From Ignavibacteria bacterium UBA6688 (GTDB lineage: Bacteria; Bacteroidota; Ignavibacteria; UBA10030): a stretch of DNA of 40,858 nucleotides. The notes beneath the pieces were generated by a model. That model did not search any database, was not told where the DNA came from, and saw only the letters and a list, made by a program, of their open reading frames with translations. Below, piece by piece: positions 6,629-37,748 of the stretch. The stretch covers positions 4,819 through 45,676 of the forward strand of contig DKJQ01000232.1 in NCBI GenBank assembly GCA_002454845.1. Direction: 5' to 3'. Each line of letters begins with the position of its first letter. The first letter of the stretch is position 1. Both the position numbers and the translations under genes were made by a program.

Positions 6629-6668
6629 GGTACCATTTCTTCACCCCTCACCTACAAAAGGAGTTTGT

Positions 6669-7256: not shown

Positions 7257-7271
7257 AAAGCGCTCCGAACG

Positions 7272-7310
7272 AAACAAATCCCATTGCCGTAACAAGGCAA
7301 TGGGATTTGT
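7272..7310. terminator. Bidirectional Rho-independent terminator between convergent yceI and the CDF gene
   Basis: Perfect 16-bp stem AACAAATCCCATTGCC (7272-7287) / GGCAATGGGATTTGTT (7295-7310) with a 7-nt loop. A T-rich tract GTTTCTTGTT follows on the plus strand. Confidence 0.7.
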
Positions 7311-7372
7311 TGTTTCTTGTTGGAACGGGAAAGAATTGTTCCCTAGACTTCAGGCCGGCCTTCTCCGACAGT

Positions 7373-8326: not shown

Positions 8327-8347
8327 GGCATCATTCCTTTCACCGTG

Positions 8348-9508: not shown

Positions 9509-9583
9509 CGGCGTGCACCTTCCGTTCGTATGTGGAGAGGGGGAATTGTACAGGCAGGTCCCGGGGGGAGGAAGGCCCCGGAT

Positions 9584-9685
9584 CTACCCCCAGGCCGTCC
9601 CGGAACGAAGAAAAACGACCACGAACCATCCGGCGAGGAGGGAAACGACGATCAGAATGCGAAGTTGTTTATCGGTCAGTTTCAT
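9584..9685 (-). CDS. Possible 33-aa single-TM small protein (MKLTDKQLRILIVVSLLAGWFVVVFLRSGTAWG)
   Basis: Hand translation of the 231-nt gap between two minus-strand genes gives ATG at 9685 and TAG at 9584-9586. There is one hydrophobic helix and no clear Shine-Dalgarno. It is too short for the supplied ORF track. Confidence 0.2.
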   Translation of the reverse strand: MKLTDKQLRILIVVSLLAGWFVVVFLRSGTAWG

Positions 9686-9739
9686 CAAAATTTGGCAAGC
9701 GGTGAGTGAAAAGATAGAAACAAAAGGAAGGAGAAGCAA

Positions 9740-10981
9740 TCACAAGATCAAGAAAAAGAGCCAATAAACCAGCAGATTGAGGAGAGTCAACGGTATTCCG
9801 ATTTTCGCAAACTCCAGGAAGGTGATCGTTTCACGCGACTTCCGTTCGGCGTTTTGGATGACGATGATGTTGCTGGCGGCGCCGAGGATCAGCATGTTAC
9901 CCGCGATCGTGCTGCCCGCGGCGAGGGCCATCAACTCCCGCACGGTTGCCCCCGCGTGCATCAGCACCGGTTGATAGAGCGCGACCAGCGGGACATTGGA
10001 TATGCACTGACTCAGGATTGTGCTCACCGCGAGGATCATCTCAATGGACGTGATGGGGAAATCCATTCGGGCCAACACGCCTTGAAAGAAACCCGATCGC
10101 CAAACGCTCTCCATCAAGACGAACATGGCCGCGAAGAACGCCAGGGTATGCCAATCGATCCGGCGCAGGATTTCCATCCGCCTCTTGCTGCCGACCAGGA
10201 TCGGGAGCGCCCCCGCAAACGCGATCGTGGTCAGGCGGAAATCGACGTTCAGGGCGAGGACCACGTTGAGAATTTTAAGTCCAATGAAAATAAGAACGAC
10301 GTGAAGCGCCACGCGCGCCAAAAAGGCAAGGGACTTGTCACGAATCGGTTCCTGAGAATGCTTGAGCCCCGCATTGTGAAAATCCTTCGGGTAGAATCGT
10401 TTGAGCATGACATGGCAGAGACCCAGATTCAAGACGGTGGGGAGAAAGAGCCACCGGAAGAATGTAACAAACGGGCTCCCGATGTTCCCGTTCAGGGCGA
10501 TGAGCAGGTTCTGCGGATTCCCGATGGGACTCATCACGCTGCCGATGGTCACGGCGAAGCAGAGCGCCAGCAGGAGGGTCTTTGGCGGCATGCGATGCTT
10601 CTTCGCCAGCAGCAGAACCACAGGGGTCCCGACGATGGCAAGTGTGTCGTTCATGAGGAAGGCAGAAGCGAACCCTGCCCCGAATAACACCATCAGCATC
10701 AGGCCGTCGATGGTCGTCGCCCGTTTGAAGTACTTGTACGAAAGATGCGAAAGATACCCGCTCTCCTCAAGCGCCTGCCCGATCACGAACATCCCGAAGA
10801 GAAACAGCATCACGTCAAAGTTGATCGCACGCCATGCCACATCCAGGGGAATTTGGCCGGTGAGGATCACCACTACCGCACCCCCCAGCATAGCCTGCCA
10901 GATCTGGACCTTGATGTTCCCCACCTGCCTGACGGCAATCAGCAGGAACACAACGATAAGCGTCAGGACGGAAATGTTCAT
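9740..10981 (-). CDS. ArsB/NhaD-superfamily anion permease (YbiR / CitMHS-like)
   Basis: 413 aa and polytopic. It reads MNISVLTLIVVFLLIAVRQVGNIKVQIWQAMLGGAVVVILTGQI...SVMSPIGNPQNLLIAL...AAGSTIAGNMLILGAASNIIV. Confidence 0.75.
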   Translation of the reverse strand: MNISVLTLIVVFLLIAVRQVGNIKVQIWQAMLGGAVVVILTGQIPLDVAWRAINFDVMLFLFGMFVIGQALEESGYLSHLSYKYFKRATTIDGLMLMVLFGAGFASAFLMNDTLAIVGTPVVLLLAKKHRMPPKTLLLALCFAVTIGSVMSPIGNPQNLLIALNGNIGSPFVTFFRWLFLPTVLNLGLCHVMLKRFYPKDFHNAGLKHSQEPIRDKSLAFLARVALHVVLIFIGLKILNVVLALNVDFRLTTIAFAGALPILVGSKRRMEILRRIDWHTLAFFAAMFVLMESVWRSGFFQGVLARMDFPITSIEMILAVSTILSQCISNVPLVALYQPVLMHAGATVRELMALAAGSTIAGNMLILGAASNIIVIQNAERKSRETITFLEFAKIGIPLTLLNLLVYWLFFLIL

Positions 10982-11212: not shown

Positions 11213-12304
11213 TCAGCGAAGATCCGTTGAGAGTTTAAAGCGTACGATCCGGTCGTTGCCGGTGTCCGCGACGTAGACCGTCCCATCGAAGAAGGCAACA
11301 CCCGAAGGTTGGTTGAATTGCCTGTCGCCGTTTCCCCGGCCTCCAAAGGAATAACTTTCCACACCCCGCGAGGAAAACCGAAAGAGACTGTCTTTTTCCG
11401 CATCGATAACGAAGAGGTTTCCCGAGGGATCCAGCGTCAGCCCTTCGGGGCGGCCGAAGCGGTTGATCTGAAGGAGGCCGATATCGCCGTCCGTGGAGGG
11501 ATTGAACTTCGAAACGAATTCCGTCGTCTGTCCGATGGCAACCAGCCTGATCCATTGGACTTTGAAGAGGGGTTTATTGACTGCGTCCGGTGCATGCTCC
11601 ACTTGTGCGAAGACATACTCAAGGCTCCTGCCGGTGGGAAGTGTTGCAAGGGCCGTAAGCCGGTGGATCGAAAGCAGCCCCGTACCGTCCGGTGAAAACG
11701 TCGTTGTGATGGGGGAAATAAACCCATCGTCCTTGTCAAAAAGGAGGACCGCGTTGTCAAAGTAGGGGAAGAACCGCTTTGGACCGATACGGGCAATGGC
11801 GTACTGGTTATTATACAGCGTTGCCACGCCGGTGAAACGGCGCGTCGAGTCTGTGGGATCGAAGTACACGCGTTTGGGAGGTATGGTTCCAATTTCATGC
11901 CGATAGGCCGGCAAATCGAGACGATAGACGGCACCGAACGTCACCGGTTGAGTGTGACCGGGCAACAAGGTGTCAAATTCCGCACAGACAAGAAGCTGCA
12001 ATCGCTTGTCCTGCGCAAGGGCAACAGGACGCTTGATCCGCTGCGACGCGCCGATCACCCTGCCTGCAAGATCGAGCATCACCACGCGATCGTTTTCGGT
12101 GTCGGCGACATACGCGAAAGGTTCATTCCCGACGATGAGATCCTGCGGACGATTGAATCCGATCCAGTTGGGGTACTGCTGGATGTAGACTGTATCGCCA
12201 ATGGTGGTATTGAGATCCCCTTCGGGAAGGGAATTGATATCGAATTTCTCCACGGCACATCCCGCAAAGTATATTGCGGCAAGGAGAGCAAGAGCAATGC
12301 GCAT
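11213..12304 (-). CDS. NHL-repeat beta-propeller lipoprotein
   Basis: 363 aa with a lipoprotein signal MRIALALLAAIYFAGC. NHL-type repeats are AYVADTENDRVVML, LFVIDAEKDSLFRF and VYVADTGNDRIVRF. The start overlaps the upstream stop (TAATG). Confidence 0.75.
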   Translation of the reverse strand: MRIALALLAAIYFAGCAVEKFDINSLPEGDLNTTIGDTVYIQQYPNWIGFNRPQDLIVGNEPFAYVADTENDRVVMLDLAGRVIGASQRIKRPVALAQDKRLQLLVCAEFDTLLPGHTQPVTFGAVYRLDLPAYRHEIGTIPPKRVYFDPTDSTRRFTGVATLYNNQYAIARIGPKRFFPYFDNAVLLFDKDDGFISPITTTFSPDGTGLLSIHRLTALATLPTGRSLEYVFAQVEHAPDAVNKPLFKVQWIRLVAIGQTTEFVSKFNPSTDGDIGLLQINRFGRPEGLTLDPSGNLFVIDAEKDSLFRFSSRGVESYSFGGRGNGDRQFNQPSGVAFFDGTVYVADTGNDRIVRFKLSTDLR

Positions 12305-13290
12305 TATAACCTCACCAGCATGGAAATACGATGAACCCCACCGAGTCGTCCAAATGCCGTGTATCCGTAGTCGAGTGAAAGCGAAAGAAACTCCATTCCC
12401 GTGGCAACTCCAGCCCCGAGCGAGTAGGACTGCTCATCCGCATTGAGCCGGTATCCGCCCCGCACGGCGAAGGTCTTCGACCAAATGTATTCAAAACCCA
12501 GACTCACATTCTCGGAATTGTCATTCGGATGATTCAACTGCACGGAAGCCGTCAACGTGTTATATTCATTCTGAATCGGTTCAAAGGCGAAACCGAACTT
12601 GAACAAGGTCGGCGGGGAAAATTCCTGGAACTGCGTCACCTCCCCGCCGCCGTAGAGTTGCGCCGTACCCTCCGGTGTGACCTGGTTTCCGAAATTGGAC
12701 ATTACGGCGGAAAAGCGGGAGGAACCCAGACCGGTCCAGTAGAAGGTTCCCAGATCCACTACAACCCCTCTCATCTTCAACATATCGAGTGTCTCCTCAA
12801 AGTACCGAACCGTCGCTCCAAAACTGAACTGCGGCGTGAGCTTTTTCCCGTACGTCACCCCGACAGCCAGATCGCTGAAGCGGAAGTACGTGCCGTTCCC
12901 CGTCGGGTGCACTTCCGTCGTCACAGGCATATCGTCCGTGTGAAGCGACGTGATGGAAAGCCCGACGGCGTCCTCGGGTGTAAGATGATAGACGGCTCCC
13001 AGAAATTGATGACGAACATCCACGAGCCACTGGGTATGAGAGAGCACCGCTTCGTGCCCGCTGAACTGCGTAATGCCTGCCGGATTCCAATAGAGCGCGG
13101 ATGCGTCGTTCGCCACCGCGATAAATGTCTCCCCCATGGCTGCCGCCCGCGCCCCCACGCCGATTTTCAGAAACTGCGCGGTTGAGGTTCCGGCCCTCTG
13201 CGCCCCGAGAACCGGGATCAGCTGCGCGATCCCCTCTCCGAAGGGAACGCAAAGCAACAAAAGGATTACGGCAATTTTCATGCTCTGCAT
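12304..13290 (-). CDS. PorV/PorQ-family (FadL-fold) outer-membrane beta-barrel protein
   Basis: 328 aa with a signal peptide. The N-terminal signature is GTSTAQFLKIGVGARAAAMGETFIAVANDASALYWNPAGI. The sequence has an alternating beta-strand character. It ends in ...HRISMLVRL. Both gene junctions are 1-nt overlaps. Confidence 0.65.
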   Translation of the reverse strand: MQSMKIAVILLLLCVPFGEGIAQLIPVLGAQRAGTSTAQFLKIGVGARAAAMGETFIAVANDASALYWNPAGITQFSGHEAVLSHTQWLVDVRHQFLGAVYHLTPEDAVGLSITSLHTDDMPVTTEVHPTGNGTYFRFSDLAVGVTYGKKLTPQFSFGATVRYFEETLDMLKMRGVVVDLGTFYWTGLGSSRFSAVMSNFGNQVTPEGTAQLYGGGEVTQFQEFSPPTLFKFGFAFEPIQNEYNTLTASVQLNHPNDNSENVSLGFEYIWSKTFAVRGGYRLNADEQSYSLGAGVATGMEFLSLSLDYGYTAFGRLGGVHRISMLVRL

Positions 13291-16097
13291 CAGAACCGTA
13301 CTCCTAATCCCACCAGGACATTCCGTGGCGCAAGATAACGGGCAGGATTAAATGGATAGGGAGACACCGGCGCCTGGAGGTCGGGATATGACGGATCATT
13401 CCATGACGTGGGAGTCGGCTCTCCGAGCTCATAGGCACGACCCGTCACGGGATTCACGATCGTCGTGTTTTTGCGGTTCAGCACGTTCCGGACATTGATC
13501 GAAAGCAACCAATCGAGTCCCAGGAGTGAAAAACTCTTTTCGATATTGACATCGATCCAGAACCAATCCTGTCCTATGTCCGCGAGCCGGTTGTTCCTGT
13601 CCAGGACATAATTGGGCCTGTTGTTGGTCGTGAGGAAACCGTCCTGAACATAAGGGGTATATCGTTTTCCGGATTGAAAGAAGGTCCGGACATAGACTGA
13701 ATAGTCGTCGAGGATTCCCTGGCCGAAACCAAACAGCGGTTGATCCTTCAGAACGTTAAACGTCGTCGTGAGACTGAACTGCAAGGGTCGATCCCACGTT
13801 ACGTAGTTTTCCTTGATCGTTTCGTCCTCATCCCCCCGTGCAACGAGAAGCCCCTGGTCGGGCGAAGAGCTCTTGCCTGTGGTGATGGAGTACGAGCCGG
13901 AGACCGTTCCGCGGAACCACCGACCGATGCGCTTGCGGTATTCGAACTCGATGCCCCGGGCGCGCGCGTAATCCTGATTCACGTATGTCACAAAATTTCC
14001 GGTTGACAGGCGGGAGGTTGTAATCCGGGCCTGCCGTGTCGACACATAATCGAAAATATCCTTGTAGTACGCCGTAACGGTGAGGACATCATCGCTCGAG
14101 AACTGGGTTTGCAGTCCCAGTTCGTACGCGACGGTTGTTTCCGGATCAAGATCCGGGTTTCCGAATTTCTGAAAGGTCGATTGTGCAGTGGCCGGATCCA
14201 GCTTTGCATAGATGAATTGCGGTTTCGGCCGCTTGGAGAAATGGCCATACGAAAAAAAGAGCATCTGGTTTTCGGAAACAGGATGCGAGATGCCCACCCG
14301 CGGACTGAGCCGTCCTTTTCCCCTCAGTCCGAACATTGAAAAGGTTTTCCGGTGATAGTCTTCCCTGATCTTATCGGGGATTGTCGTCACATCGGGGTTG
14401 TTGACCGCATCGTCCACGTATTTTCCGGGGAACCAATAGTCGAAGCGAAGGCCGACGTTCAGGATCATGCCGCTGACGGTAATATTGTCCTGCGCATACA
14501 GCGCGCCAAATCCGGGGGACACTTGATAGATGTCGTTATTCAAACCAAGCACACCCACCCATGGTTGGTAAATATCGACATTTTGCATCTCCTGGAACGT
14601 TGCCTCCATGCCCGCCTTGAACTTGTTGTATTCGGAAAAATGTTTTGTGAGGTCGAACTTGACCGTATTCTCGGTAACGAAATGGTCGTGCCATGTGAAT
14701 CCATTTCCGTAGTCCCATAACCCGTCACCGGGAATGATGCCGACCGTGTCGCGGTCCAGGTTGTAGTACTGGACCGGAAATGTGACGATGTCCTTCGGTT
14801 CACGATATTCCGAGAAATGTTTCCCGTTGGCATCCGCCCGCATGCTCACGAAATAGTGCGTGAACTTGAGCTCGTAGAACAACGAGTTTGACAGGGTATG
14901 AGTGATTCCCATACTGAAGAATTGATTGTCATGCGTGTAGGTGTTGGCATCGTCCAGAATGTTTCCATATTCATACTGATACCCGGGGCTCGGTTCGACG
15001 TACTCGAGGTTTGTCTGGAGCGATTGTGAATTCTGATTGATCGCGACGGAGTGGTTGTAGGAGAAACTCACGCGGAACAGAGACGATGGACGCCACGTCA
15101 GTTTTCCCAGGAGCAACCAGTTGTTTTCCTGCTTCGGGGCGAATCTGCTTCCATGGAAGGTCGACGAAACGAGCTGGCGCGCGGCTTTCTTCGTGTACCC
15201 GTCGGAGAACGCTCCGACGAGACTTGTAAAGAACGTAACCGACCCGAGGTCCTTGCTGATGAGAGGAAACAAGAGGCCGCTTATCGGCTCGGGTCCGCTC
15301 AAGGTAAACTCGTAAGATTCCGAGTTGAAACTATTGAGGAAGCCCTTCGATCCGCCAGGTTTGTCCGTCCTGTACACCAGCCCCCCCCGGTAACGCTCCC
15401 CCCCTTCCTTGAGGGACACGTTGACGACACCCGAGGTTGCCTGACCGTACTCTGCATTGTACCCCCCGGTGATAACCTCAATCTCTTCAACCACATCGGC
15501 GCTCAACTGCAGACCGAACCCTGTTCCCGCCAACGGATCCTGGACCGACACTCCATCCAGCAGGTATGCATTTTCATGAGAGCGTCCTCCCCGGATGTGA
15601 ACTTCGTTGTCGGTTTGTACCACACCGACTTGTTGCGTCACCACGTCCTTCACATTCGCGACGGGAGTGGCACGGAGATCCTCGGCGGTCACTGAACGGC
15701 GACTCGAGGTCTCGTCGAGGTTGAAGAGCGGTTTCTCTCCCACCACCACAACCTCCTGTCCAAGCGAGAGTACCGTTTCTGCCATATCCTGGTTGACAAT
15801 TGTTTCCTGCCCGGCAATGACTTTGACATCCGTCCTCTGAACGGTCGTGTATCCAAGGATGGTGAATTCCAGCGTGTAGCTTCCCGGAGCCATGTTGGCA
15901 ATGACGTAATTGCCATCCAGGTCGGCTGCCGCGCCGTAATAGGTTCCCTTGATCTTGACATTGACCAACGGAAGTCCCTCTTTGGTCCCCGCGTCTCTGA
16001 TTGCTCCGCGAATTACCCCCCTCTCCTGCGACAGCGCGGGTGAATCCCAAACGATCACCAGGGTAATCGCCATCAGGAGAAAACGTGGCAGAGTCAT
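13290..16097 (-). CDS. TonB-dependent receptor with N-terminal carboxypeptidase-regulatory-like domain (SusC-like architecture)
   Basis: The ORF track extends to 16169. I prefer the ATG at 16097 (MTLPRFLLMAITLVIVWDSPALSQE), which directly follows the upstream stop (TAGTATG). The CarboxypepD_reg-like segment is GVIRGAIRDAGTKEGLPLVNVKIKGTYYGAAADLDGNYVIANMAPGSYTLEF. The plug region reads HIRGGRSHENAYLLDGVSVQDP...EVITGGYNAEYGQATSGVVNV. The C-terminus is VGLGVRF. Confidence 0.85.
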   Translation of the reverse strand: MTLPRFLLMAITLVIVWDSPALSQERGVIRGAIRDAGTKEGLPLVNVKIKGTYYGAAADLDGNYVIANMAPGSYTLEFTILGYTTVQRTDVKVIAGQETIVNQDMAETVLSLGQEVVVVGEKPLFNLDETSSRRSVTAEDLRATPVANVKDVVTQQVGVVQTDNEVHIRGGRSHENAYLLDGVSVQDPLAGTGFGLQLSADVVEEIEVITGGYNAEYGQATSGVVNVSLKEGGERYRGGLVYRTDKPGGSKGFLNSFNSESYEFTLSGPEPISGLLFPLISKDLGSVTFFTSLVGAFSDGYTKKAARQLVSSTFHGSRFAPKQENNWLLLGKLTWRPSSLFRVSFSYNHSVAINQNSQSLQTNLEYVEPSPGYQYEYGNILDDANTYTHDNQFFSMGITHTLSNSLFYELKFTHYFVSMRADANGKHFSEYREPKDIVTFPVQYYNLDRDTVGIIPGDGLWDYGNGFTWHDHFVTENTVKFDLTKHFSEYNKFKAGMEATFQEMQNVDIYQPWVGVLGLNNDIYQVSPGFGALYAQDNITVSGMILNVGLRFDYWFPGKYVDDAVNNPDVTTIPDKIREDYHRKTFSMFGLRGKGRLSPRVGISHPVSENQMLFFSYGHFSKRPKPQFIYAKLDPATAQSTFQKFGNPDLDPETTVAYELGLQTQFSSDDVLTVTAYYKDIFDYVSTRQARITTSRLSTGNFVTYVNQDYARARGIEFEYRKRIGRWFRGTVSGSYSITTGKSSSPDQGLLVARGDEDETIKENYVTWDRPLQFSLTTTFNVLKDQPLFGFGQGILDDYSVYVRTFFQSGKRYTPYVQDGFLTTNNRPNYVLDRNNRLADIGQDWFWIDVNIEKSFSLLGLDWLLSINVRNVLNRKNTTIVNPVTGRAYELGEPTPTSWNDPSYPDLQAPVSPYPFNPARYLAPRNVLVGLGVRF

Positions 16098-16098
16098 A

Positions 16099-17628
16099 CT
16101 ATGGAATCCCGAATTCATCCTTGTATACCTTCCGGAGCAGGGCCGCCGCATTGTCGGGCGGGGTTCCAAACCTGTGAAGAATCAATGCGAGCATGACAAA
16201 GCTGGGTTGGTCCGCATCCTTAACACCCATAATCGGTTGACCGGCCCAACGCGGGGACGCCTGCATGCGATACAGCACCCTCGTGTTCACTTTGGGGATG
16301 ACACCACGGGGAAATGCGTAGATCGTGCCGAGATTGTCCCGTACCAGCGTCGGGTAAGCCGGATCGGACGACGTCTCGACGGTATCGCTGGCATTCAACC
16401 GGTTGGTGAAGAAGCTTGGCTCGACATTTTCAATGGGCGCGAAATCCACCAAGCTCCCCTGTCCGCTCACATTTTCCGGCAGACCTGCGCTGAACATAAC
16501 CTTCCCCCCTGCTTTCACAAATTCCGGGAGACTGGATTGGGCAATTTCGAGACTTGGTGAATTATCGGAGTACCAGAAAATGTACTTAAACAGTTTGATC
16601 GATTCCGTAAACGTCGGATTGATCAGCGGAGGCATATTGTCCCCGCGTTTGATCGCCGTGGCCCCCTTCTTGATGTCCCAAACATCCCGGGATCCGAGCC
16701 TCCCGTCCATCAGCGTATCGAACATCGCCGTATAGAAAGAGGTGGAAAAATCGGAGGGCAGATAATCGTCCACGATAAGAAAATCGCCATTCGGATGACG
16801 CACGTACCATGTACGATTTTCATCCGGCATGCGGATGGTCGCACTGAACGCCCCGGCAACATCCTTGGCTTTCAGGTAGAACACATGCAAGCCTTCGGGC
16901 AGCGACGCGGACCGATAGGTGATCGGATCGGCCGGAGTGATCGTCCTGTTGTGGAACAAGGTGACGCGATTGAAGGATCCGGGCAGAGTCTGCCAGGCAT
17001 TCTCCGCGAGGGTGTCATCGACTGCGATATAGAACGAATCGATGGTGCCGTTGCCGTCGAAATCCGTCGCATTCCACTGAAACGTGGCAATCGGATAGGT
17101 GGTATCGGGAACATTGGCGCTCAGAAGGAATGACACCACCGGGGGCGTGTTTTGGATCGGGTAGTGAAGAGTCGCAGGCGTGGGATCGGCCGCCCCGAAA
17201 TCCGTAAACGGTTCCCCCTCATCCCAGCGGCCATTGGCGTTGAGATCGACGTACGGCTCAGTGCCCCAGGGTCCGCTCGCATCGTAACGACCGTTGCCGC
17301 CGTTATCAATCGCGGAAACAAAGAAGGAATAGGTCGTGTCCGTGGTATTCAACCGGAGTGCAAAGAGGCTATCATTGCGGGGGGTGAAATGCCACGACAG
17401 ACTGTCGAAGGAAAACACGAATCCCACGACGAAACCGTCTTCGTCCGCACCCCACCACCGGATATGCTGCTGGCTGCTCGTACGGCGGAGCGAAACGTCC
17501 GGCTGGAGAGAAAGATACGTCTCGGGGGCCTTGTTCTCAAGGGGCTCGTTGGTAAAGCGTTCGGAACACCCCTGCCAAAACACCAGGAACGCGAGCATCA
17601 ATATCGAAAGTCGTGTCAAGATACGCAT
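16099..17628 (-). CDS. Lipoprotein of unknown function with three D-x-N-x-N-G-x-x-D loops
   Basis: 509 aa. The signal peptide ends FLVFWQGC. Three loops are DNGGNGRYD, DLNANGRWD and DFDGNGTID. No enzymatic motif recognised. Confidence 0.6.
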   Translation of the reverse strand: MRILTRLSILMLAFLVFWQGCSERFTNEPLENKAPETYLSLQPDVSLRRTSSQQHIRWWGADEDGFVVGFVFSFDSLSWHFTPRNDSLFALRLNTTDTTYSFFVSAIDNGGNGRYDASGPWGTEPYVDLNANGRWDEGEPFTDFGAADPTPATLHYPIQNTPPVVSFLLSANVPDTTYPIATFQWNATDFDGNGTIDSFYIAVDDTLAENAWQTLPGSFNRVTLFHNRTITPADPITYRSASLPEGLHVFYLKAKDVAGAFSATIRMPDENRTWYVRHPNGDFLIVDDYLPSDFSTSFYTAMFDTLMDGRLGSRDVWDIKKGATAIKRGDNMPPLINPTFTESIKLFKYIFWYSDNSPSLEIAQSSLPEFVKAGGKVMFSAGLPENVSGQGSLVDFAPIENVEPSFFTNRLNASDTVETSSDPAYPTLVRDNLGTIYAFPRGVIPKVNTRVLYRMQASPRWAGQPIMGVKDADQPSFVMLALILHRFGTPPDNAAALLRKVYKDEFGIP

Positions 17629-17686
17629 TCGAATTATTACGGGAAGGAGAGCGCGGTTGTCTCTCCTTCCCGCAAACGGATCGTAG

Positions 17687-19927
17687 TTACTTCAAGAGCA
17701 CCATTTTTTTGGCGGTCATGAAATCGCTCACTTTGAGCTGATAGATATAGACACCTGTGGCAAGACGCGACGCGTCGAAGGTGGCCATAAACGTCCCCGC
17801 CATTTGGTCTGCATTGACGACCGATGCGACTTCCTGGCCAAGGACATTGAACACCTTCAGGGTGACCCTGCCGGGAACCGGGATGGAATACCGGATCGTC
17901 GTACTGGGATTGAAGGGATTTGGATAATTCTGGCTCAGATCGAACTGGCCGGGAACAAGATCCACGGTTTCGACGCTTGTGACCGTCCCAAAGTCATCAT
18001 CCTTGCGCGGCTCAAGTTTATAGGAACTGAACGAATAGTCGAGAATTCCGCGTATAAATGATAACCGTGCACGGTGGGGAATGAGAATGGCACCGGAAGG
18101 CTTCGCCGTGTAAGAAGCAGACGTGTCGGCGTAGTACTTGTTGACTCCATTATCATTCACTCTCAATCCGAACGAGGTGGTGGCACTGCTGCCGATGAAG
18201 AACTCTCCGAAGTTACTCCCCGATCCGCCTGTCGCGTTATCTGCATTTCTTCCGACGACATAGGGGTTGTTAATCTGCACGAACACGCCTTCCCATTGTT
18301 CGAACGTCGCATTTCCATCCACGGGTGGATTGCTTAACGAATAGCTGACCGATCCAGATCCCGATATAGAAATTGTGGTCGGTCCGGGTACCGTTTTGTT
18401 TCTCTCATGAACGGTCTTCGAGAGAACCTGGATTTCTGTCTTGGAGAAGCTCTCCCGAACGATTCCTGTCACGGTGACACTGTCACCGCGCGCAAGGGTA
18501 TCAGCCCGCACGCCGGCCCCATTTCCGTAGATCGCAATACCCTTCCATGCTCCTGCCGATTCGGCAATGTAGAGCCGGGGGTTGGAAACAGTCTCTTTGA
18601 GATCGGTTGTGTCGGCCGTGACAACGCCCGAGACCGTCACCGTGTCGCCGACGAACGCCGGCCTTCCATTGACGTACGGAGTGTATTGAAGATCATACAC
18701 CGTCAGACCGTTGTCGCGGACCCGGTAGAAATACGGAACAGTCGCGTCGGGGAATGTCCCGGTGGATCCTTCCGAACCATACGCTTCGGCATAATAACTG
18801 ACGAGGCTGTTGTTTGCTTGTGCCGGGATCTGAGCGCGATACAGGGAGTCTCCTGCCGCCAGCGTGAGTTTCAACCGCGTGAAGGTTCCACTGTCCACCT
18901 TGTAGTACACGGCGGCGCTGTCGATCGTCGCTCCGGTATTGAGGTTCGATGCGCGGAACGTCACGCTCACGGAGTTGCTCGAAAGAGGAAGCCCGGGTGT
19001 GCGCGTGAGCCCGGTGATGCTCGGTGCGAACTTGTCAATAACCATGTCCCCTGCGTAGGTGGATCCATTCAGCTGACCCGGTCCTGGGTACAGCGGCATG
19101 ATGGTGTAGTCGCCGGCCGTTCCCGTCCTCGCCTGCGGAATGATGATCCCGCGAATATAGCTGAGCTTGGTACCGACGGGGGGGGCCGTGTAGCGCGAAT
19201 TTGAATAACGGTGTCCGCGTAAGGTATAGTACCCCGAGCCATCATAAATCTGCATCTGGTTCCCTGCGGCATCAACAAAGGTAAATCTCCCGGAAGAGAG
19301 ATCGACCGAATTGACCGTGACATTCCGAATGACAACGTACATCCCCTCATACTTTTCACCCCGGGAGGGGCGGGGTTGCGTCCCAACTGCGAAGCTGTCC
19401 ACGCTTAGCTCGATGGGGGCCGGGCGCGATCCGCTCTTCACGATTTCCACGGCCACCGGACTTGTGAATGCCGGTGCCGAGGTCGAATAAAGATACAATT
19501 CCGTCAGACTATTGGGCTGCGAGCCGAATTCAAGGGCACGCCCCACGACCGTAATGACATCACCGGTATCGACCGCTGTTATTTGGGTCGTTTGGGCGGC
19601 ATCGGAAGTGTCGTTGGTCAGAATGTTCAATCCCGCAAAAATTGCGCCCGTCGTCGTGTCCTGGATGAAGAGATTATACCGTGCCAGCGTGTAGGTGAGA
19701 ATTCTGGGTTTTACCAGAACAACCCCCGTGACACGGACTGTGTCGTTGCTCTGGACATATTGCGTGTTATCCAGGAGCGTTCCCGCCGCACTTTGCAGCT
19801 GGTCCATTTTGAGCAGGGAGTCGAGCGGAACGATATTGAGCTCGGGGATGGTCACATTCTTCTGTGCAGAGGCAAGGGAAACCATGCCGGCCAGGCAGAA
19901 GACCGTTAACAGTAGACGAGTTCTCAT
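17687..19927 (-). CDS. Secreted protein of unknown function with internal duplication and T9SS type-A C-terminal sorting domain
   Basis: 746 aa with signal peptide MRTRLLLTVFCLAGMVSLASAQ. The C-terminus is NYPNPFNPSTTIRYSIPVPGRVTLKVFNVLGQEV...TGVYIYQLKVSDFMTAKKMVLLK, a canonical Por secretion tail. Confidence 0.75.
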   Translation of the reverse strand: MRTRLLLTVFCLAGMVSLASAQKNVTIPELNIVPLDSLLKMDQLQSAAGTLLDNTQYVQSNDTVRVTGVVLVKPRILTYTLARYNLFIQDTTTGAIFAGLNILTNDTSDAAQTTQITAVDTGDVITVVGRALEFGSQPNSLTELYLYSTSAPAFTSPVAVEIVKSGSRPAPIELSVDSFAVGTQPRPSRGEKYEGMYVVIRNVTVNSVDLSSGRFTFVDAAGNQMQIYDGSGYYTLRGHRYSNSRYTAPPVGTKLSYIRGIIIPQARTGTAGDYTIMPLYPGPGQLNGSTYAGDMVIDKFAPSITGLTRTPGLPLSSNSVSVTFRASNLNTGATIDSAAVYYKVDSGTFTRLKLTLAAGDSLYRAQIPAQANNSLVSYYAEAYGSEGSTGTFPDATVPYFYRVRDNGLTVYDLQYTPYVNGRPAFVGDTVTVSGVVTADTTDLKETVSNPRLYIAESAGAWKGIAIYGNGAGVRADTLARGDSVTVTGIVRESFSKTEIQVLSKTVHERNKTVPGPTTISISGSGSVSYSLSNPPVDGNATFEQWEGVFVQINNPYVVGRNADNATGGSGSNFGEFFIGSSATTSFGLRVNDNGVNKYYADTSASYTAKPSGAILIPHRARLSFIRGILDYSFSSYKLEPRKDDDFGTVTSVETVDLVPGQFDLSQNYPNPFNPSTTIRYSIPVPGRVTLKVFNVLGQEVASVVNADQMAGTFMATFDASRLATGVYIYQLKVSDFMTAKKMVLLK

Positions 19928-19989
19928 ACAAACTCCTTTCGGGAAGTGGTGAGTGTGAATGGTGATGTGAGATCGGTAGATTCAAAGCG

Positions 19990-22035
19990 TTATTTGATGA
20001 TTAAGAATTTTCCCCGTTGAATGTCACCGCTCTCTTTATTTTGGACGGTGAAGAGATACAAACCGGTGGCGATCGCCTGGTCGTTCTGCGTGATGAGGTC
20101 CCACGCGTGCTCGCCTCCGGCAAACTGTTGTGTTCCGTCCGAAAACCGCTGGAACCAATTGATGTCGCTTCCATTATAGCCTGCAGCTTCATGCTCGAAT
20201 TGATCGACAATGTCGCCGGCGAGCGTATAGATCCGTATCTCGGCGCGCGGCGGAAGGTTATAGAAGTACAACTTTCGATCCCGTTCTCCCTGTCCATCCC
20301 AATACGCACGCGCATAATAGGGATTGGGGTAGACGCCAACATTTACCCCGGGTTGTTCCGCTGCAGGAGTCCCCGGCAAAACTCTCCGTAGAGTCTGAAT
20401 CCGGCTGCTTTCCAGGCTTTGGAGTCCCGTGTTGGAGTCGCCGGAGTCGAAGGCCGTAACGGCAAAACCGTATTGAAATCCGTTCAATAATCCTTTCACG
20501 GAAAATTTGTACCAGTAGTGTGTCGTGTCCGGAGGAAACGTCACTGATGCCGTGAGCCGAACGGCACCGAAACCGGTGTTGTAACCGATCTGGTCATCCG
20601 GTGAATCAAATTCGCCAAGAACGTTGAGGTTCCCGAGGAGGTTCTGGGAAACCGTCAGGTCGACACCTGTCTTTGTCCCGTAGACACGGTAGCCTTCGAA
20701 ATCCTTTTCATTGGAGATCGGGTCGACCGATGCCTCGGAAGACCGATCCCAGTAGATATCCACGAGCTTATCGCCCGGTACCACGTTGACCCGCGGCGGT
20801 GTTGGAGGAGACGGGAGAAAATAACGCTTCGGTTTTCCATTATCCGTCCAGATCTCGTCCTCATCTTCCATCCCGTTGCCGTTTCGGTCTTCACCGTTGT
20901 ATGTACGCTGCGCCCAGTCGGCTGCCTGGTAGAGGAAAACCTTCTGCGCGGGAGAATCATCCGTCGTTGGTGTTGAAAATTTTTTCTTCGCCGCGATCAG
21001 AGCGAACACGACGTTAACCGAATCACCGGCGGCAATCCTGCTGAAGGGCCCAACAGTCACCATGGACATGAAATTGCTGGGCTTGGGGATCCCGGCAATC
21101 TGCGCGGGTGCAAGCCCCAGGGCCATCTTGTCGTATTTGGCAACATCCGTCGGGGGGGAGAAATAGGTCGGGTCTGAAGTATTCCGGAATTGCCACGCTT
21201 GATATCCCGTAGTGTTTTTAAACGGTGTGGAGCCCAGGAACATCATCGCTGCGTAGGTGTCTGCAAGCCCGACATCGCCGTTGTAATCGTAGGCATAAGC
21301 CATATTCAGGGTATCGACATAACCCAATCCCCCTTTGTCGTAGAACGGCGCCCCTACGGTCGGGGGGGTGACATTCGTATTTCGTACAACCAGGTCGGCC
21401 CAGAGTGAAACGTACGCACTGTCCAGCGGGTATGAATTCAGGTTTTTGATCCAGTAGTTGAAAATCACAAAATTATCGGCGAACGAAAAATTGAAAGCGT
21501 AGGTCTCCTGATGAACGTTGATGTTGAGGGGATTGTGATTCGGGATCGGCTCGTTATTCTGGTTGGGGTTGGTCGTGTTCACATCAGTGAAATCCGCGAT
21601 GAAGTCCTGATGACTGATGGCATCCGGAGAATAGAACCGGTTATCGGCAAGCGACGATCGTTCGATCACCCGCGAATCCAGGCCGGTCGTGAACTCGAAC
21701 CCCTCTGAAACGCTCCGGAGGGAAGGTACATCGACGGCGCCGGTGGTGACGCGAATGCCATTCGGTGTCACCGCCCCGACCCACAATCCGCCGACGAAAC
21801 AATGTTCGATCCCGGATCCGCGGGGATATTGCATGGAAGGTTGTTGTGGCCAGAGACGAAATCCGTGACCGAACACGCCGTAGTTCGAAATCGTAATGGC
21901 AATGTTACCGACATTGGTGAACTTCGAATTGTCGTCGCCCGCGCCCTTGGAAATCGAAGAGCGCTCCTGGGCCATAGCGATGGTAATGAGGGAAGAGAAG
22001 AAGAGGATTCCAATACGTAGTCCACGCAGGCGCAT
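19990..22035 (-). CDS. Secreted protein of unknown function with divergent, expanded T9SS/FlgD-Ig-like C-terminal domain
   Basis: The ORF track extends to 22224. I prefer the ATG at 22035 (MRLRGLRIGILFFSSLITIAMAQE), which gives a signal peptide. The C-terminus is VYPNPYY...EIRIYTLAGDIVDQF...TGLYLFTVQNKESGDIQRGKFLIIK. Confidence 0.7.
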   Translation of the reverse strand: MRLRGLRIGILFFSSLITIAMAQERSSISKGAGDDNSKFTNVGNIAITISNYGVFGHGFRLWPQQPSMQYPRGSGIEHCFVGGLWVGAVTPNGIRVTTGAVDVPSLRSVSEGFEFTTGLDSRVIERSSLADNRFYSPDAISHQDFIADFTDVNTTNPNQNNEPIPNHNPLNINVHQETYAFNFSFADNFVIFNYWIKNLNSYPLDSAYVSLWADLVVRNTNVTPPTVGAPFYDKGGLGYVDTLNMAYAYDYNGDVGLADTYAAMMFLGSTPFKNTTGYQAWQFRNTSDPTYFSPPTDVAKYDKMALGLAPAQIAGIPKPSNFMSMVTVGPFSRIAAGDSVNVVFALIAAKKKFSTPTTDDSPAQKVFLYQAADWAQRTYNGEDRNGNGMEDEDEIWTDNGKPKRYFLPSPPTPPRVNVVPGDKLVDIYWDRSSEASVDPISNEKDFEGYRVYGTKTGVDLTVSQNLLGNLNVLGEFDSPDDQIGYNTGFGAVRLTASVTFPPDTTHYWYKFSVKGLLNGFQYGFAVTAFDSGDSNTGLQSLESSRIQTLRRVLPGTPAAEQPGVNVGVYPNPYYARAYWDGQGERDRKLYFYNLPPRAEIRIYTLAGDIVDQFEHEAAGYNGSDINWFQRFSDGTQQFAGGEHAWDLITQNDQAIATGLYLFTVQNKESGDIQRGKFLIIK

Positions 22036-22089
22036 CAACGGGTGTGCTTTGAAAAAAGAAGGAGAGACGCTGGGAAAAAAGTACCGGTC

Positions 22090-22117
22090 AATATATATAC
22101 TTTTGGGAGAGAAGCAA
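22090..22117 (-). promoter_or_regulatory. Possible sigma70-like promoter for the 22035-11213 operon
   Basis: On the minus strand: TTGCTT (22117-22112), 16-nt spacer, TATATT (22095-22090). It lies about 55 nt upstream of the ATG at 22035. This is a weak call. Confidence 0.25.
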
Positions 22118-22474
22118 CGAAGGTCGGTAACTTTTTTGTTATGCCTGTATGAACTCCAGGAGCGAGCTTTGGGCGCTCTATTCGGCACCTCAGGAGCGAA
22201 CCCTGGCTGAGGTACTTTCTTCACGTCACAGCGGAGAAACCTGTCGAATAGTGTGCGGGACGAGCCGGAAACAACCCTGGAGGGTTTTTTGCAAAAAAAC
22301 GCATGAAATGGAATTTTTCACCTGCGGATTACGCTCCGTCTCTGGTGAAGCAAGGCGCTGTATCGCGCGAGTTTTCACGGTGATTCCTCATCCCCGGACT
22401 GCTGCCGGGGTTTCACCAATCCTGACCTTGTGGCATATTCCATAGGTGACATCTGACTGCCACCGGACCAAGGC

Positions 22475-22504
22475 GGAACAAAGGAGTGGGATCATCATCC
22501 ACTC
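22475..22504 (-). terminator. Possible weak terminator after the beta-lactamase/VanX fusion gene
   Basis: On the minus strand: GAGTGG (22504-22499), 9-nt loop, CCACTC (22489-22484), then CTTTGTTCC. The stem is short and the U-tract is poor. Confidence 0.3.
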
Positions 22505-22527
22505 ATTCAGGCGGAAGGCCGGCAATT

Positions 22528-24879
22528 TCATCCCTCCGGTATCTCCTCGAACCGTACGGTCCCGATCGGATACTTCCTCCAATCTCCGTAATCGAAATGC
22601 CACCATTCCCATTCGTACACATTGAATCCCTCCGCTTCCATGGCCGACCGGAGCAATTCCCGGTGCCACCGTTGAAGTGAAGTGCCGCCGGGATAGTCGG
22701 GGAAGGCCCGGTCGGAAAATTCATCATAACCGCTTACCATATCGACCGGCTTGCCGGTTTTGAGATCATAGAGCGTCAAATCGACCGCACAGCCACGGTT
22801 ATGACGCGACCCTTTTGACGGGTCGGCAACGAAAATCCGCTTGTCTTCCGGTGTCGCATCCCAGAACATTTTGGTCACGTACCAGGGCCGATACCCGTCG
22901 TGGATCATCAATCCGTATCCATGATCCTTCAGCCTTCTCAGCGCACGGACTAACGCCTCTGCCGCGGGACGTTGCAGGAACGCTTTCGCTTCTGAATAGA
23001 ATACGGAGCTCATGAAGTTGTTCTTCGACGCGTACCGTATATCGAATCGAATGGTTGAATCGAGCGTGGAAAGATCGACGAGATCGCTTTTGTAGAATTC
23101 CCCTTCTTCCCGTGGTGGTTGTGCCGCCAGAGCTTCCGACTTCAGTGTCTCGATCGGCTTCAGGGGCCGGATTTTGAAGGTTCCTCCCTCTTCACCGTCG
23201 ATCGCCCTGCGCTGAAATAGAACGCTTGCCGCCTCGACCCCGGTGACTTTCCCACGCGCATTCCGGCGGAAGAACAATTTTTCGCCATGGTATAATCCAT
23301 ACTCCGGAAACGCAAACACATCCTTCGTGATCTCGCGAAGCGGATAGAGATCGAACCACTCTATCAGGCAATACAGCTTTCCCTCTTTTTCAAGGATGTA
23401 AAGAATATTATGATCCCATCCGTACTCCCCGAGAAGTCCCTTCCAACGATCCGGGACCGGAGATGGTTTCTGTTCTGGCGTTCGTATCAGAGTATCTTGA
23501 CCCAGCACGAGGGCATCGGAGGAAAGCATGAGGAAATTCATCCCGACGCTCAACCGATCGTCGGTCACCAGTTGGGAACCGGAAAGTCTGAGCTTCAAAC
23601 CGGTCCGGGAACCAACGGCCGCCAGGAGAGTTCCGTTCCGGTTCATCAGGCGGACACTTCTTCCCCCTTTGGCATAGAGTCCTGCCAGGTCTGCGGCATC
23701 TTTCGGGTGTATCGGAAATGTCGGCTGAATGACGGGCCGCGCCTCCCCTTCCCTGTAGGCCAGAAGAAAATGAAATGCATAGTTCGCGATCCTCTCCAGC
23801 ACAGGGTTGATCGCATCGACAGATGCCATCAGGACAATACCGAGTTTCTCTTCCGGGAGAGCCGCGAGCTCCGTGCTAAAGCCATACACTGCTCCGCCAT
23901 GCCCAACACGCAGGTAGCCTTCGAAATCGGACACGGCAAAACCGATTCCGAATCCCGACCGTTGATCCACCGGAACAAACTGCGGCACCCACATTCGTGC
24001 GAGGGTCGGGGGGTTCAGCAAGCGCCCCGTTTCCCCGATCCCGCCGTTGAAAAGCATGGCAAGAAATTTTCCAAGGTCGATCACGTTCGAGTATAGATTT
24101 CCAGCCGGCCCCGTTCCCAAGGGGAACGTCGGGGCGGGAAACGTTCGACCGTCGACTGTCCACATCGTCCCTTGGGCAAGATGATCCCGGACCTTTGCCG
24201 TACGGACGAACGAACTAGCCTCCATTCCCAGGCGATCAAGGACGGCTTCCTGAATGTACTGCTCAAACTTTTTCTCCTTCAACGTCTCAAGCACCAGGCC
24301 GACTGTCGCCACTCCCGCGTTCGAATACTTGGTGCGGGTTCCCGGTTCATAGACCAGGGTTGTCCGATTCAGGCTTTGAACTGTGGTAGCCAGCGACGGC
24401 TGGCCGGGATCGAAGTAGTGCCCCACAGGGGACTCCCGGACCAGTCCCGACCGGTGCGACATCAGGTGCCGGAGTGTGATCTGCTTTTGGAACGGATTGC
24501 GAGGTTTGAATGCAGGCAGATAGCGTGTCATCGGGGCATCAAGGTCGATCTCACCCTGTTCCACAAGCTGCATGATGGCGATATCGGTGAAGAGGTTCGA
24601 GACGGAGCCGGCGCGGTAGGAGGTTTCGTACGTTGCCGGGATTTTCTTTTCCTCGTCGGCGTACCCGAACCCTTCCGCCCAGATGATGGTCTGGTCGTCG
24701 ACCAGGGCAATCGAAAGTGCGGGAATGTTCTTGTCTTCTATCTCATGCTGGATGAACTCGCGCAGGGTCGCAATAACGGGACGGTAATCCTCCACCCTCT
24801 CTTGTCCGGGTAAAACTCCGGGCATCATGAAAGACAAGAGTATCCACGCGCGCAACAATTCCGTGAACCATCGATGCAT
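22528..24879 (-). CDS. Exported fusion protein: N-terminal beta-lactamase/DD-peptidase-fold serine hydrolase domain plus C-terminal D-Ala-D-Ala dipeptidase (VanX/DdpX, peptidase M15D)
   Basis: The ORF track extends to 24972. I prefer the ATG at 24879, which has AAGGAG upstream and gives signal peptide MHRWFTELLRAWILLSFMMPGVLPG. N-domain motifs are GSVSNLFT (SxxK position reads SxxN), YSN and HGG. C-domain motifs are IRFDIRYAS, SRHNRGCAVD and EWEWWHFDY. Confidence 0.85.
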   Translation of the reverse strand: MHRWFTELLRAWILLSFMMPGVLPGQERVEDYRPVIATLREFIQHEIEDKNIPALSIALVDDQTIIWAEGFGYADEEKKIPATYETSYRAGSVSNLFTDIAIMQLVEQGEIDLDAPMTRYLPAFKPRNPFQKQITLRHLMSHRSGLVRESPVGHYFDPGQPSLATTVQSLNRTTLVYEPGTRTKYSNAGVATVGLVLETLKEKKFEQYIQEAVLDRLGMEASSFVRTAKVRDHLAQGTMWTVDGRTFPAPTFPLGTGPAGNLYSNVIDLGKFLAMLFNGGIGETGRLLNPPTLARMWVPQFVPVDQRSGFGIGFAVSDFEGYLRVGHGGAVYGFSTELAALPEEKLGIVLMASVDAINPVLERIANYAFHFLLAYREGEARPVIQPTFPIHPKDAADLAGLYAKGGRSVRLMNRNGTLLAAVGSRTGLKLRLSGSQLVTDDRLSVGMNFLMLSSDALVLGQDTLIRTPEQKPSPVPDRWKGLLGEYGWDHNILYILEKEGKLYCLIEWFDLYPLREITKDVFAFPEYGLYHGEKLFFRRNARGKVTGVEAASVLFQRRAIDGEEGGTFKIRPLKPIETLKSEALAAQPPREEGEFYKSDLVDLSTLDSTIRFDIRYASKNNFMSSVFYSEAKAFLQRPAAEALVRALRRLKDHGYGLMIHDGYRPWYVTKMFWDATPEDKRIFVADPSKGSRHNRGCAVDLTLYDLKTGKPVDMVSGYDEFSDRAFPDYPGGTSLQRWHRELLRSAMEAEGFNVYEWEWWHFDYGDWRKYPIGTVRFEEIPEG

Positions 24880-24905
24880 ACTGTTTCTCCTTTGATTAAA
24901 AACGA

Positions 24906-27946: not shown

Positions 27947-28004
27947 GGGGAGTTCTGGAAGAGGCCCGATGGTCGTCAGAACCTCGAGAGTCGGCCGACG
28001 ATGG

Positions 28005-29729: not shown

Positions 29730-29770
29730 CCTTCGTTATTTGACGTCCGCACTCTCCCGGACGGACTCAC

Positions 29771-34978: not shown

Positions 34979-35196
34979 TGCCAATCCTCTGATTTCTGAG
35001 TGAATTCGACGGAAAAACGTTGAAACCACAAAAAAGTAACCAAATTTGCCTCGGCACGCAAGGGAATAAGCTCTACGCCCAGCCCGGGATAATGGCAACG
35101 AATCGGGTCGGGAGAAGAAACCAAGGGAGAGTTTGAGGGGAGAAATGAGGTGAGATTCTGGAATGATCCTTCCGTCACACAGAACATGACACGGAT

Positions 35197-35224
35197 CGAA
35201 AAGGATGGATCGGGCCCCATCCCC
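35197..35224 (-). terminator. Possible weak terminator after the gldAFG-DUF4340 operon
   Basis: On the minus strand: GGATGG (35222-35217), 8-nt loop, CCATCC (35208-35203), then TTTTCG. It lies 24 nt downstream of the stop at 35248. Confidence 0.3.
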
Positions 35225-35247
35225 TTTCCCGATACGGTTTCTCTGTG

Positions 35248-36147: not shown

Positions 36148-36154
36148 CAGCTTT

Positions 36155-37699: not shown

Positions 37700-37748
37700 G
37701 TCTTTATATTTTTATACTTCGATACTTTCCTGCCATACAATATGTCCG

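Follow-up and report, generated by a model that had tools for sequence, protein, structure and literature searches.

Introduction

In Bacteroidota, BtuB-BtuG and XusA-XusB are TonB receptors capped by beta-propeller surface lipoproteins. Here we describe an operon that resembles these pairs in part, and several other envelope systems in other parts. It is located in a 40,858-nucleotide (nt) stretch of DNA from Ignavibacteria bacterium UBA6688 (contig DKJQ01000232.1), hereafter the window, and consists of six minus-strand genes, G1 to G6, encoding a secreted protein with a probably atypical type IX secretion system (T9SS) C-terminal domain (CTD), a secreted protein with an ordinary CTD, a lipoprotein, a TonB-dependent receptor, a PorV/PorQ-type barrel and an NHL propeller lipoprotein. 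An earlier note, made from the sequence alone, had singled out this operon as a possible surface capture/import or cargo-handling module. That note is partly supported: its observation was confirmed and its core inference, which stood up to the refutation checks that the note itself had set, is supported, whereas its framing in terms of SusC/SusD and SprA is not. On balance, we lean slightly toward the view that the operon encodes a TonB-energised outer-membrane complex for capture and import, of a type not yet described.

By its logic, the nearest characterised analogue appears to be the DNA-utilisation locus ddbABCDEF of Bacteroidales, together with the natural-transformation transporter RA0C_RS04915/04920 of Riemerella anatipestifer, in which a CarboxypepD_reg-type TonB receptor is combined with an oligonucleotide/oligosaccharide-binding (OB)-like partner and nucleases (PMC12478041; PMC8459023). 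The shared features are a six-gene outer-membrane locus built around a CarboxypepD_reg-type TonB receptor without SusD, a surface partner of OB-like folds, accompanied by a secreted nuclease in 21 of 62 related loci only, and what would be the logic of a polysaccharide utilisation locus (PUL) applied to a non-glycan polymer. What G4 is seen to share with DdbC and RA0C_RS04915 is the CarboxypepD_reg-type architecture. Moreover, ddb has a DUF5689 partner, which was not detected here, and the operon of the window has no nuclease; the related loci use a T9SS-delivered nuclease of the phospholipase D (PLD) type, whereas ddb uses lipoprotein nucleases. Conversely, ddb contains no PorV-like barrel, no NHL lipoprotein and no G1-type protein.

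The SusCD/RagAB utilisomes encoded by PULs have in common with this operon a receptor made of CarboxypepD_reg, plug and large barrel, and the co-encoding of surface lipoproteins and secreted polymer-handling proteins. The difference is that G4 fails the SusC/RagA model and that, instead of SusD, a PorV-like barrel and a CTD protein are found beside the receptor. Within the T9SS, PorZ keeps its CTD for binding to PorQ, and protection of CTDs against cleavage may be provided by cognate PorV-like barrels (PMC10202324). The operon resembles the pairs PorQ-PorZ and PorV-PorU, as well as PorP/SprF with type B cargo, in that a barrel of the PorV family is co-encoded with a protein having a PorZ-like CTD; the likeness to PorQ-PorZ and PorV-PorU suggests an uncleaved CTD docked on its cognate barrel. 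It differs from the T9SS attachment pairs because G5 stays under the PorV and PorQ equivalog cutoffs, G1 has no propellers, and the pair is fixed beside a TonB receptor, which is absent from the attachment complex.

With BtuB-BtuG and XusA-XusB, the operon shares a TonB receptor without SusD and a co-encoded beta-propeller lipoprotein (G6) carrying a signal like that for surface export. The propeller of G6, however, is of the NHL type, and homology to BtuG or XusB was not detected for it; a riboswitch and siderophore genes are also missing from the locus. As neither a riboswitch nor related genes were found, a system for B12 or siderophores was rejected. Another precedent is the FadL-fold BamG, which is bound tightly to BamA, holds the surface lipoprotein BamH and serves as a 14-strand permanent structural partner (PMC12578637). 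The likeness to this beta-barrel assembly machinery (BAM) of Bacteroidota is a 14-strand FadL-fold barrel acting as permanent partner of a larger barrel and as platform for surface lipoproteins (PMC12578637); here, however, the small barrel is of the PorV/PorQ type rather than BamG/Toluene_X, and the large partner is a TonB receptor rather than BamA.

Conservation of the operon and of its core

Loci labelled L001-L094 are homologous loci from other genomes. Organism labels are those of the records of metagenome-assembled genomes (MAGs), and the searches cover the best 80-150 matches each; the label "Chromatiales" on some MAGs is probably due to mis-binning. With a G3 profile, relatives turned up in no fewer than 486 species-level genomes; the 80 best matches come from MAGs of Ignavibacteria, Melioribacteraceae and Kryptoniota. 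We mapped G1-G6 on 82 related loci and restricted the counts of gene order to loci with enough flanking sequence (53 for six genes, 69 for four genes). The six genes were collinear in 48 of the 53 loci with room for all of them, and among the five exceptions there are at least two, L026 and L032, in which an inserted gene pushes G1 beyond the fetched range. G3 to G6 were found together in 68 of 69 loci. The arrangement that had been described from a single genome is thus a recurrent one, and its core extends to other phyla (see below). The flanks of the operon are common to one congeneric MAG only (L006) and differ elsewhere, which marks the block as an autonomous unit; chance adjacency is rejected by the synteny across related loci. 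The median identity across loci is highest for the two barrels (60% for G4 and 59% for G5), with 45% for G3, 44% for G6 and 35% for G2.

For comparisons at greater depth, seven distant loci were picked solely for carrying a G1 relative with the C-terminal module. Profile hidden Markov models (HMMs) detected adjacent homologs of G4, G1 and G5 in all seven (L085, L086, L087, L091, L092, L093 and L094), with E-values from 1e-102 to 1e-213 for G4, 1e-68 to 1e-129 for G1 and 1e-63 to 1e-71 for G5. This combination is referred to as the core triad. L085 belongs to Calditrichota and L086 to Ca. Syntrophosphaera (Cloacimonadota); GC content ranges from 42% to 63% across the five distant loci measured (L085, L086, L087, L091 and L092). 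In L086 and L091, the genes exbB-exbD-exbD-tonB lie between the G4-like and G1-like genes, and the operon of L086 holds TonB-ExbBD, the PorV-like barrel and several CTD proteins together. All six families are present in L087, in another order, with an NHL protein that is a weak match to G6 (HMM E 3e-10), and relatives of the G3 N-domain follow G5 in L085, L087 and L094. The triad context is missing in three variants that have the G1 N-domain only, L088 among them. L088 encodes a 940-amino-acid (aa) fusion (8001-10823) of the G1 N-domain, residues ~170-500 of G3 and an ordinary type A CTD, which provides a Rosetta-stone link between G1 and G3.

Several other features of these loci were recorded. 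The L088 fusion adjoins genes for a glycosyltransferase, a flippase and a deacetylase, that is, a polysaccharide-synthesis context. In L085, the genes after G5 encode two EB_dh-domain proteins and a GWxTD protein, and a gene for a ComEC/Rec2 DNA-uptake channel (19535-21928) is found ~7.5 kb downstream of the triad, which may be a coincidence. The G4 homologs of L092 (4583-7903) and L093 (3424-6822) contain an insertion like the Asp/Asn/Gly-rich, calcium-binding-like stretch of G3 (residues ~105-155).

The receptor and the PorV/PorQ-type barrel

G4 (13290..16097, minus strand; 935 aa) is a member of the core triad with the architecture CarboxypepD_reg, plug and barrel. The domains PF13715 (CarbopepD_reg_2), PF07715 (Plug; 48.7 bits, cutoff 23.9) and PF00593 (barrel; 106.8 bits, cutoff 27) were all detected above cutoff. 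The TonB-box-like motif QEVVVVG (aa 114-120; 15738..15758, minus strand) follows a pattern, (Q/E/D/S/R/H/K)(E/D/A)(V/I)(V/I/L/M)(V/I)(V/I)G, that is kept in every G4 ortholog aligned. G4 therefore has the plug, the 22-strand barrel domain and the TonB box of a generic TonB-dependent receptor. The comparison to the SusC/RagA model TIGR04056 yielded 59.4 bits (cutoff 368), with the match restricted to residues 29-232, i.e., about 200 N-terminal residues, and a phmmer search of G4 against the PDB retrieved no solved SusC or RagA structure, the CirA plug being the sole match. Judged by these profile matches, G4 is a CarboxypepD_reg-type TonB receptor outside the SusC family, and the SusC-like assignment of the earlier note does not hold. 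None of the six operon proteins matched a SusD family, and the neighbours of G4 are G3 upstream and G5 downstream. Because G4 is not a SusC/RagA member, no SusD is expected, and the missing SusD, which had been regarded as an anomaly, is none. The missing SprA, which had also been listed, carries little weight, given that T9SS core genes are normally dispersed through the genome.

G5 (12304..13290, minus strand; 328 aa), another member of the triad, starts with a 1-nt overlap of the G4 stop codon. It matched the PorV/PorQ family NF033709 at 217.2 bits (cutoff 90; residues 35-326) and stayed below the equivalog cutoffs of both PorV (NF033710, 94.1 bits, cutoff 250) and PorQ (NF033711, 92.1 bits, cutoff 220). 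Its only relative in the PDB is PorV (6h3i, E 5e-7), and its match to Toluene_X/FadL is below cutoff; the PorV/PorQ-like barrel proposed earlier is borne out by these results. A generic FadL or OmpA porin was rejected, as NF033709 is matched well over cutoff and PorV is the only PDB relative. An ortholog of BamG was rejected as well, since G5 has no BamG match and a separate BamG-like gene is present in L085.

The secreted proteins G1 and G2

G1 (19990..22035, minus strand; 681 aa) is the third member of the triad. It has a signal peptide of the signal peptidase I (SPI) type, with cleavage between AMA and Q, followed by a supersandwich, fn3-like domains and the atypical CTD. Neither a Pfam family nor a sequence match in the PDB was found for it, a profile search of the PDB included. 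The AlphaFold2 (AF2) model of G1 (predicted local distance difference test score, pLDDT, 69) starts with a beta-supersandwich, continues with fn3-like domains and ends in a C-terminal sandwich. A Foldseek search with this model at pLDDT 69 returned only sandwich and fn3 matches and no catalytic domain, namely the non-catalytic N-domain of GH94/GH15/GH161 enzymes and fn3 arrays, with low template modelling (TM) scores of about 0.25. When individual homologs of G1 and G3 were scanned against Pfam at E<=1, just fn3, Ig and weak CTD matches were obtained. A G1 profile HMM search of the full library returned 5569 representative clusters, in which the N-domain and the C-terminal module are also found separately.

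The C-terminal region of G1 (aa 565-681; 19993..20343, minus strand) deserves separate consideration. In whole-protein searches it matched the C-terminus of PorZ (E 1.5e-4), CHU_C (E 0.026) and Por_Secre_tail (E 0.09); the isolated tail gave weak matches to PF18962 (13.5 bits) and CHU_C (15.1 bits). G1 reached 20.4 bits against the PorZ model NF052228 (cutoff 260), over the C-terminal 120 residues only, and no propeller is present in the AF2 model. The tail aligns end to end with the CTD of G2 (E 0.009), with common YPNP...GxY...KxxxxK landmarks. Invariant columns make up 38% of the G1 CTD versus 19-25% of the remainder of G1, which makes the tail the best-conserved part of the protein. The PorZ C-terminus is the best match of the G1 tail and also of the tails of the distant homologs in L086 and L092, and the motif is kept across phyla. 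These alignments suggest that the G1 tail is probably an atypical PorZ-like domain and a putative retained anchor. Of the two CTD cargo proteins claimed earlier, G2 stands, whereas G1, with its weakly detectable PorZ-like tail, is probably no ordinary cargo.

G2 (17687..19927, minus strand; 746 aa) ends in a T9SS type A CTD (aa 668-743; 17699..17926, minus strand) that was detected by TIGR04183 (41.4 bits, cutoff 23) and PF18962 (34.4 bits, cutoff 27), as it was in all 22 orthologs. An internal repeat (E 7e-4) reflects a tandem pair of OB modules of the ExeM/NucH type, and an Ig-like domain stands between the two copies. The match to the ExeM/NucH model NF033681 (37 bits, against a bar of 300 bits for the enzyme) covers profile positions 30-120 only; it is placed in the second module (aa 458-564; 18236..18556, minus strand; E 1.7e-9), and 21 of the 22 orthologs match this model (best E 2.5e-14). 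The second module also matches weakly the Pfam tRNA_anti-codon OB fold, and a PDB profile search with G2 retrieved the Ig domain of PPAD, the OB fold of RPA and a T9SS CTD. The Pfam scan of G2 revealed no nuclease domain, and the score against NF033681 is not that of an ExeM/NucH endonuclease. DUF5689 (PF18942) had no match at E<=0.01 in the whole operon proteins, nor at E<=5 in pieces of G2. The earlier statement that no enzymatic or binding family could be assigned to the bulk of the first three proteins was accurate for G1, G3 and most of G2, as far as characterised enzyme or adhesin families are concerned; it missed the ExeM/NucH-type modules of G2.

The lipoproteins G3 and G6

G3 (16099..17628, minus strand) is a 509-aa lipoprotein whose lipobox cysteine, Cys21, is invariant in its homologs. 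The AF2 model (pLDDT 83) shows two fn3/Ig-like domains and a C-terminal alpha/beta domain; Foldseek returned fn3 tandems only and nothing for the alpha/beta domain. No Pfam family was found for G3, the PDB profile search gave weak fn3 matches only, and fn3 was matched by 15 of 28 homologs. Among the matches listed, the full-length G3 family is restricted to Ignavibacteria and Kryptoniota, and searches from both ends of the family stayed there.

G6 (11213..12304, minus strand), a 363-aa lipoprotein with lipobox Cys16, starts with a 1-nt overlap of the G5 stop codon. It matches the NHL repeat PF01436 at 53.7 bits (cutoff 20) and, in the PDB, the NHL propellers of TRIM71 and PknD, in agreement with its previous description as an NHL propeller lipoprotein. 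At least two acidic residues follow the lipid-anchor cysteine in 39 of 55 orthologs, similar to the Bacteroidota signal for surface export (cited in PMC12578637).

Lineage-specific added genes

A seventh gene is present after G6 in 21 of 62 loci, at a median distance of 1.5 nt. Its product is made up of an ExeM/NucH-type module, fn3, a pair of PLD/HKD domains that are closest to the nucleases NucT, Nuc and Zucchini, and a CTD of type A. A thermolysin-like M4 peptidase with a CTD is encoded directly upstream of G3 in 11 of 64 loci, and in L022 it is a phosphoesterase of the phospholipase C (PLC)/acid-phosphatase family, again with a CTD, that precedes G3. The scanned proteins of the related loci yielded no match to a glycoside hydrolase, lyase or esterase domain. 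The operon of the window has none of the three additions (PLD nuclease, M4 peptidase or phosphoesterase).

Some further added genes encode proteins without family. In L080 (19051-21444) and L081 (19099-21498), the nuclease gene is followed by an eighth one, whose 799-aa product has two further ExeM/NucH-type modules, a CTD and an N-domain without family. In L041, the place of G1 and G2 upstream of G3 is taken by a gene for a 1212-aa protein without family (6274-9912). In the clade with the M4 peptidase, a conserved protein of ~160 aa, also without family, precedes the peptidase (L001, 6355-6849).

Proposed function and alternative explanations

The import role is supported by the TonB box in all G4 orthologs and by the exbB-exbD-exbD-tonB genes inside the clusters of two distant loci, L086 and L091; the capture/import inference of the earlier note gains from the same two facts. 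We propose the following scheme. G1 would be exported by the T9SS with its atypical PorZ-like CTD left uncleaved, and this CTD would dock permanently on the G5 barrel, as PorZ does on PorQ and PorU on PorV. G5 in turn would lie alongside the G4 barrel, much as BamG, a FadL-like barrel, lies alongside BamA. G1 could then act as an extracellular substrate-binding lid, the role that SusD, BtuG or XusB play in other Bacteroidota transporters, with G3 (two fn3 domains plus alpha/beta domain) and G6 (NHL propeller) as the remaining members of the surface assembly. G2, or elsewhere the PLD-type nuclease, M4 peptidase or phosphoesterase, would be delivered by the T9SS to bind and cut a polymer, fragments of which would be pulled through G4 by TonB. 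The co-occurrence of ExeM/NucH-type modules with a nuclease and a phosphoesterase makes us think of extracellular nucleic acid or other phosphodiester-rich necromass as the substrate; this is our leading guess, but a tentative one that may well be wrong. An even broader possibility, which we put forward with similar reserve, is a so far unrecognised class of outer-membrane machine common to the Fibrobacterota-Chlorobiota-Bacteroidota (FCB) lineages, in which a TonB receptor is permanently coupled to a PorV/PorQ-type barrel that holds a T9SS protein by its uncleaved PorZ-like CTD. T9SS anchoring would have been co-opted to provide the lid of a transporter without SusD, or TonB energy would be used for handling CTD-anchored surface proteins, with lineage-specific T9SS hydrolases plugging in.

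Several observations do not fit this scheme easily. An identity of ~57-60% for receptor and barrel at class depth, along with the rigid synteny, is a pattern that one would sooner associate with housekeeping machinery of the envelope than with a locus for nutrients. There is no hydrolase, periplasmic binding protein or inner-membrane transporter in the operon of the window, and the accessory enzymes elsewhere are mixed (nuclease, protease, phosphoesterase), with a protease in the same slot in one clade. The modules of G2 are not basic (pI 5-6; ortholog medians 4.9-5.3), which argues against simple electrostatic binding of DNA, and the lack of a DUF5689 match is a further point that does not favour nucleic acid as the substrate. 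It should also be noted that the retention of the G1 CTD is deduced from its conservation and from weak PorZ-like matches only (20 bits versus a cutoff of 260), and that the G1 N-domain is more like a carbohydrate-binding supersandwich, according to the low-TM Foldseek matches.

Three other explanations have to be considered. The operon could be an accessory or attachment module of the T9SS, with G5 and G1 as counterparts of PorQ and PorZ (or PorV and PorU) that process, anchor or release CTD cargo in general, and with a receptor that would serve this purpose, e.g., by recycling cleaved CTDs or importing a precursor of the linking glycolipid, instead of taking up nutrients. The membership of G5 in the PorV/PorQ family, the matches of G1-family tails to the PorZ C-terminus in three lineages, the CTD-tagged proteins clustered near the module in every lineage, and the near-universal rigid conservation, like that of core machinery, are all consistent with such a role. 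Nevertheless, we regard it as unlikely: G1 has no PorZ beta-propellers and stays far below the PorZ cutoff, G5 fails the PorV and PorQ equivalog cutoffs, and a PorU-like sortase is absent from every locus. Furthermore, a plug-containing TonB receptor is constantly present, sometimes with its own TonB-ExbBD, and the known attachment complex needs neither.

A glycan or exopolysaccharide utilisation locus without SusD, in which G1 with its supersandwich, G2 with its OB modules, and G3 would bind glycans at the cell surface and feed oligosaccharides to G4, could account for the resemblance of the G1 N-domain to the N-terminal sandwich of GH94, GH15 and GH161 enzymes, for the fn3/Ig content that is typical of surface glycan-binding proteins, and for the G1/G3 fusion beside polysaccharide-synthesis genes in L088. 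This explanation seems improbable in view of the lack of any glycoside hydrolase, lyase or esterase domain in the scanned proteins of the loci; as far as enzymes embedded in the loci were identified, they comprise a nuclease, a protease and a phosphoesterase, and the Foldseek resemblance amounts to a TM-score of about 0.25 on a model with pLDDT 69. The joint presence of TonB-ExbBD, a PorV-like barrel and several CTD proteins in one operon of L086, taken with the job of PorV, which is to collect CTD cargo at the translocon, might even point to a TonB-powered device for export or release, i.e., an alternative outer-membrane route for CTD proteins in FCB lineages, in which G4 is unplugged by TonB-ExbBD and the PorV-like barrel acts as shuttle. 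The chances of this seem very small: the conserved plug and TonB box fit ordinary import, to our knowledge no TonB-dependent receptor is a protein exporter, and the lumen of a 22-strand barrel is too small for folded T9SS cargo.

A full-text literature search (Ignavibacteria, T9SS, PorV/PorQ, TonB receptor, NHL) found no description of the module. Each part is a known kind of protein; what is new, as far as can be told, is that a PorV/PorQ-type barrel stands in fixed association with a TonB receptor and with a protein whose tail is PorZ-like, across several FCB phyla. If the proposed function is correct, it would join TonB-dependent uptake complexes and T9SS cargo anchoring, two hallmarks of Bacteroidota and FCB bacteria that have so far been studied apart, and would reveal how a lid for substrate capture is made in lineages that lack SusD. 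It would also provide a function for the G1 family (>5,000 sequence clusters) and for many proteins annotated merely as "PorV/PorQ family". Sediments, groundwater and bioreactors are rich in Ignavibacteria, Kryptoniota, Calditrichota and Cloacimonadota, and the module would mark a widespread recycling route if its substrate were extracellular nucleic acid or necromass. Both Ignavibacterium album and Melioribacter roseus have been brought into culture, and the operon is present in relatives of each genus, so that direct testing is possible.

Layout of the operon and its surroundings in the window

Inspection of open reading frames (ORFs) places G1-G6 on the minus strand from 22035 down to 11213. 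Existence, order and coordinates of the six ORFs agree with the previous description, the receptor being 935 aa long instead of 936. The spacing also agrees: in the order G1 to G6, the genes are separated by 62 nt, 58 nt and 1 nt and then overlap twice by 1 nt, and the non-coding flanks measure 492 nt upstream (given earlier as about 490) and 231 nt downstream. An alternative GTG start would make G1 a 744-aa ORF; the ATG start (681 aa) is preferred because the homologs have 680-705 aa. Signal peptides of the SPI type with Gln at +1 (G1, G2, G4 and G5) and the lipoboxes of G3 and G6 were read from the translations.

The non-coding region upstream of G1 (22036..22527, minus strand) was read from the sequence as a leader/promoter region. 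No Rfam family was found in the window at the gathering threshold, and a search of this 492-nt leader at E<=10 gave a single chance-level match only. Scans for sigma-70 promoters and terminators yielded counts no higher than expected from shuffled sequence.

The neighbours of the operon are unrelated to it. A CitMHS transporter gene is found downstream. On the upstream side, the operon is adjoined by a gene (22528-24972, minus strand) for an unusual, cell-wall-related 814-aa fusion of a serine beta-lactamase/penicillin-binding-protein-like domain (PF00144, E 7e-62) with a VanX-type D-Ala-D-Ala dipeptidase of family M15 (PF01427, E 4e-34). Further minus-strand genes in the window (25790-30763) encode a MoxR AAA ATPase, an S8 subtilase whose tail is FlgD_ig/CTD-like, and a protein of 718 aa that matches VWA weakly; the subtilase is probably another T9SS cargo. 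Three genes in a row (30827-35323, minus strand) specify SurA/PpiC-type peptidyl-prolyl isomerases of 428, 288 and 786 aa, likely periplasmic chaperones for outer-membrane proteins. Finally, a four-gene set (35248-39509, minus strand) consisting of an ABC ATPase, an ABC-2 permease, a GldG-like ABC_transp_aux/GIFT protein and a DUF4340 protein resembles the GldA/F/G ABC module associated with gliding and the T9SS, a hint of T9SS-related machinery in the source genome.

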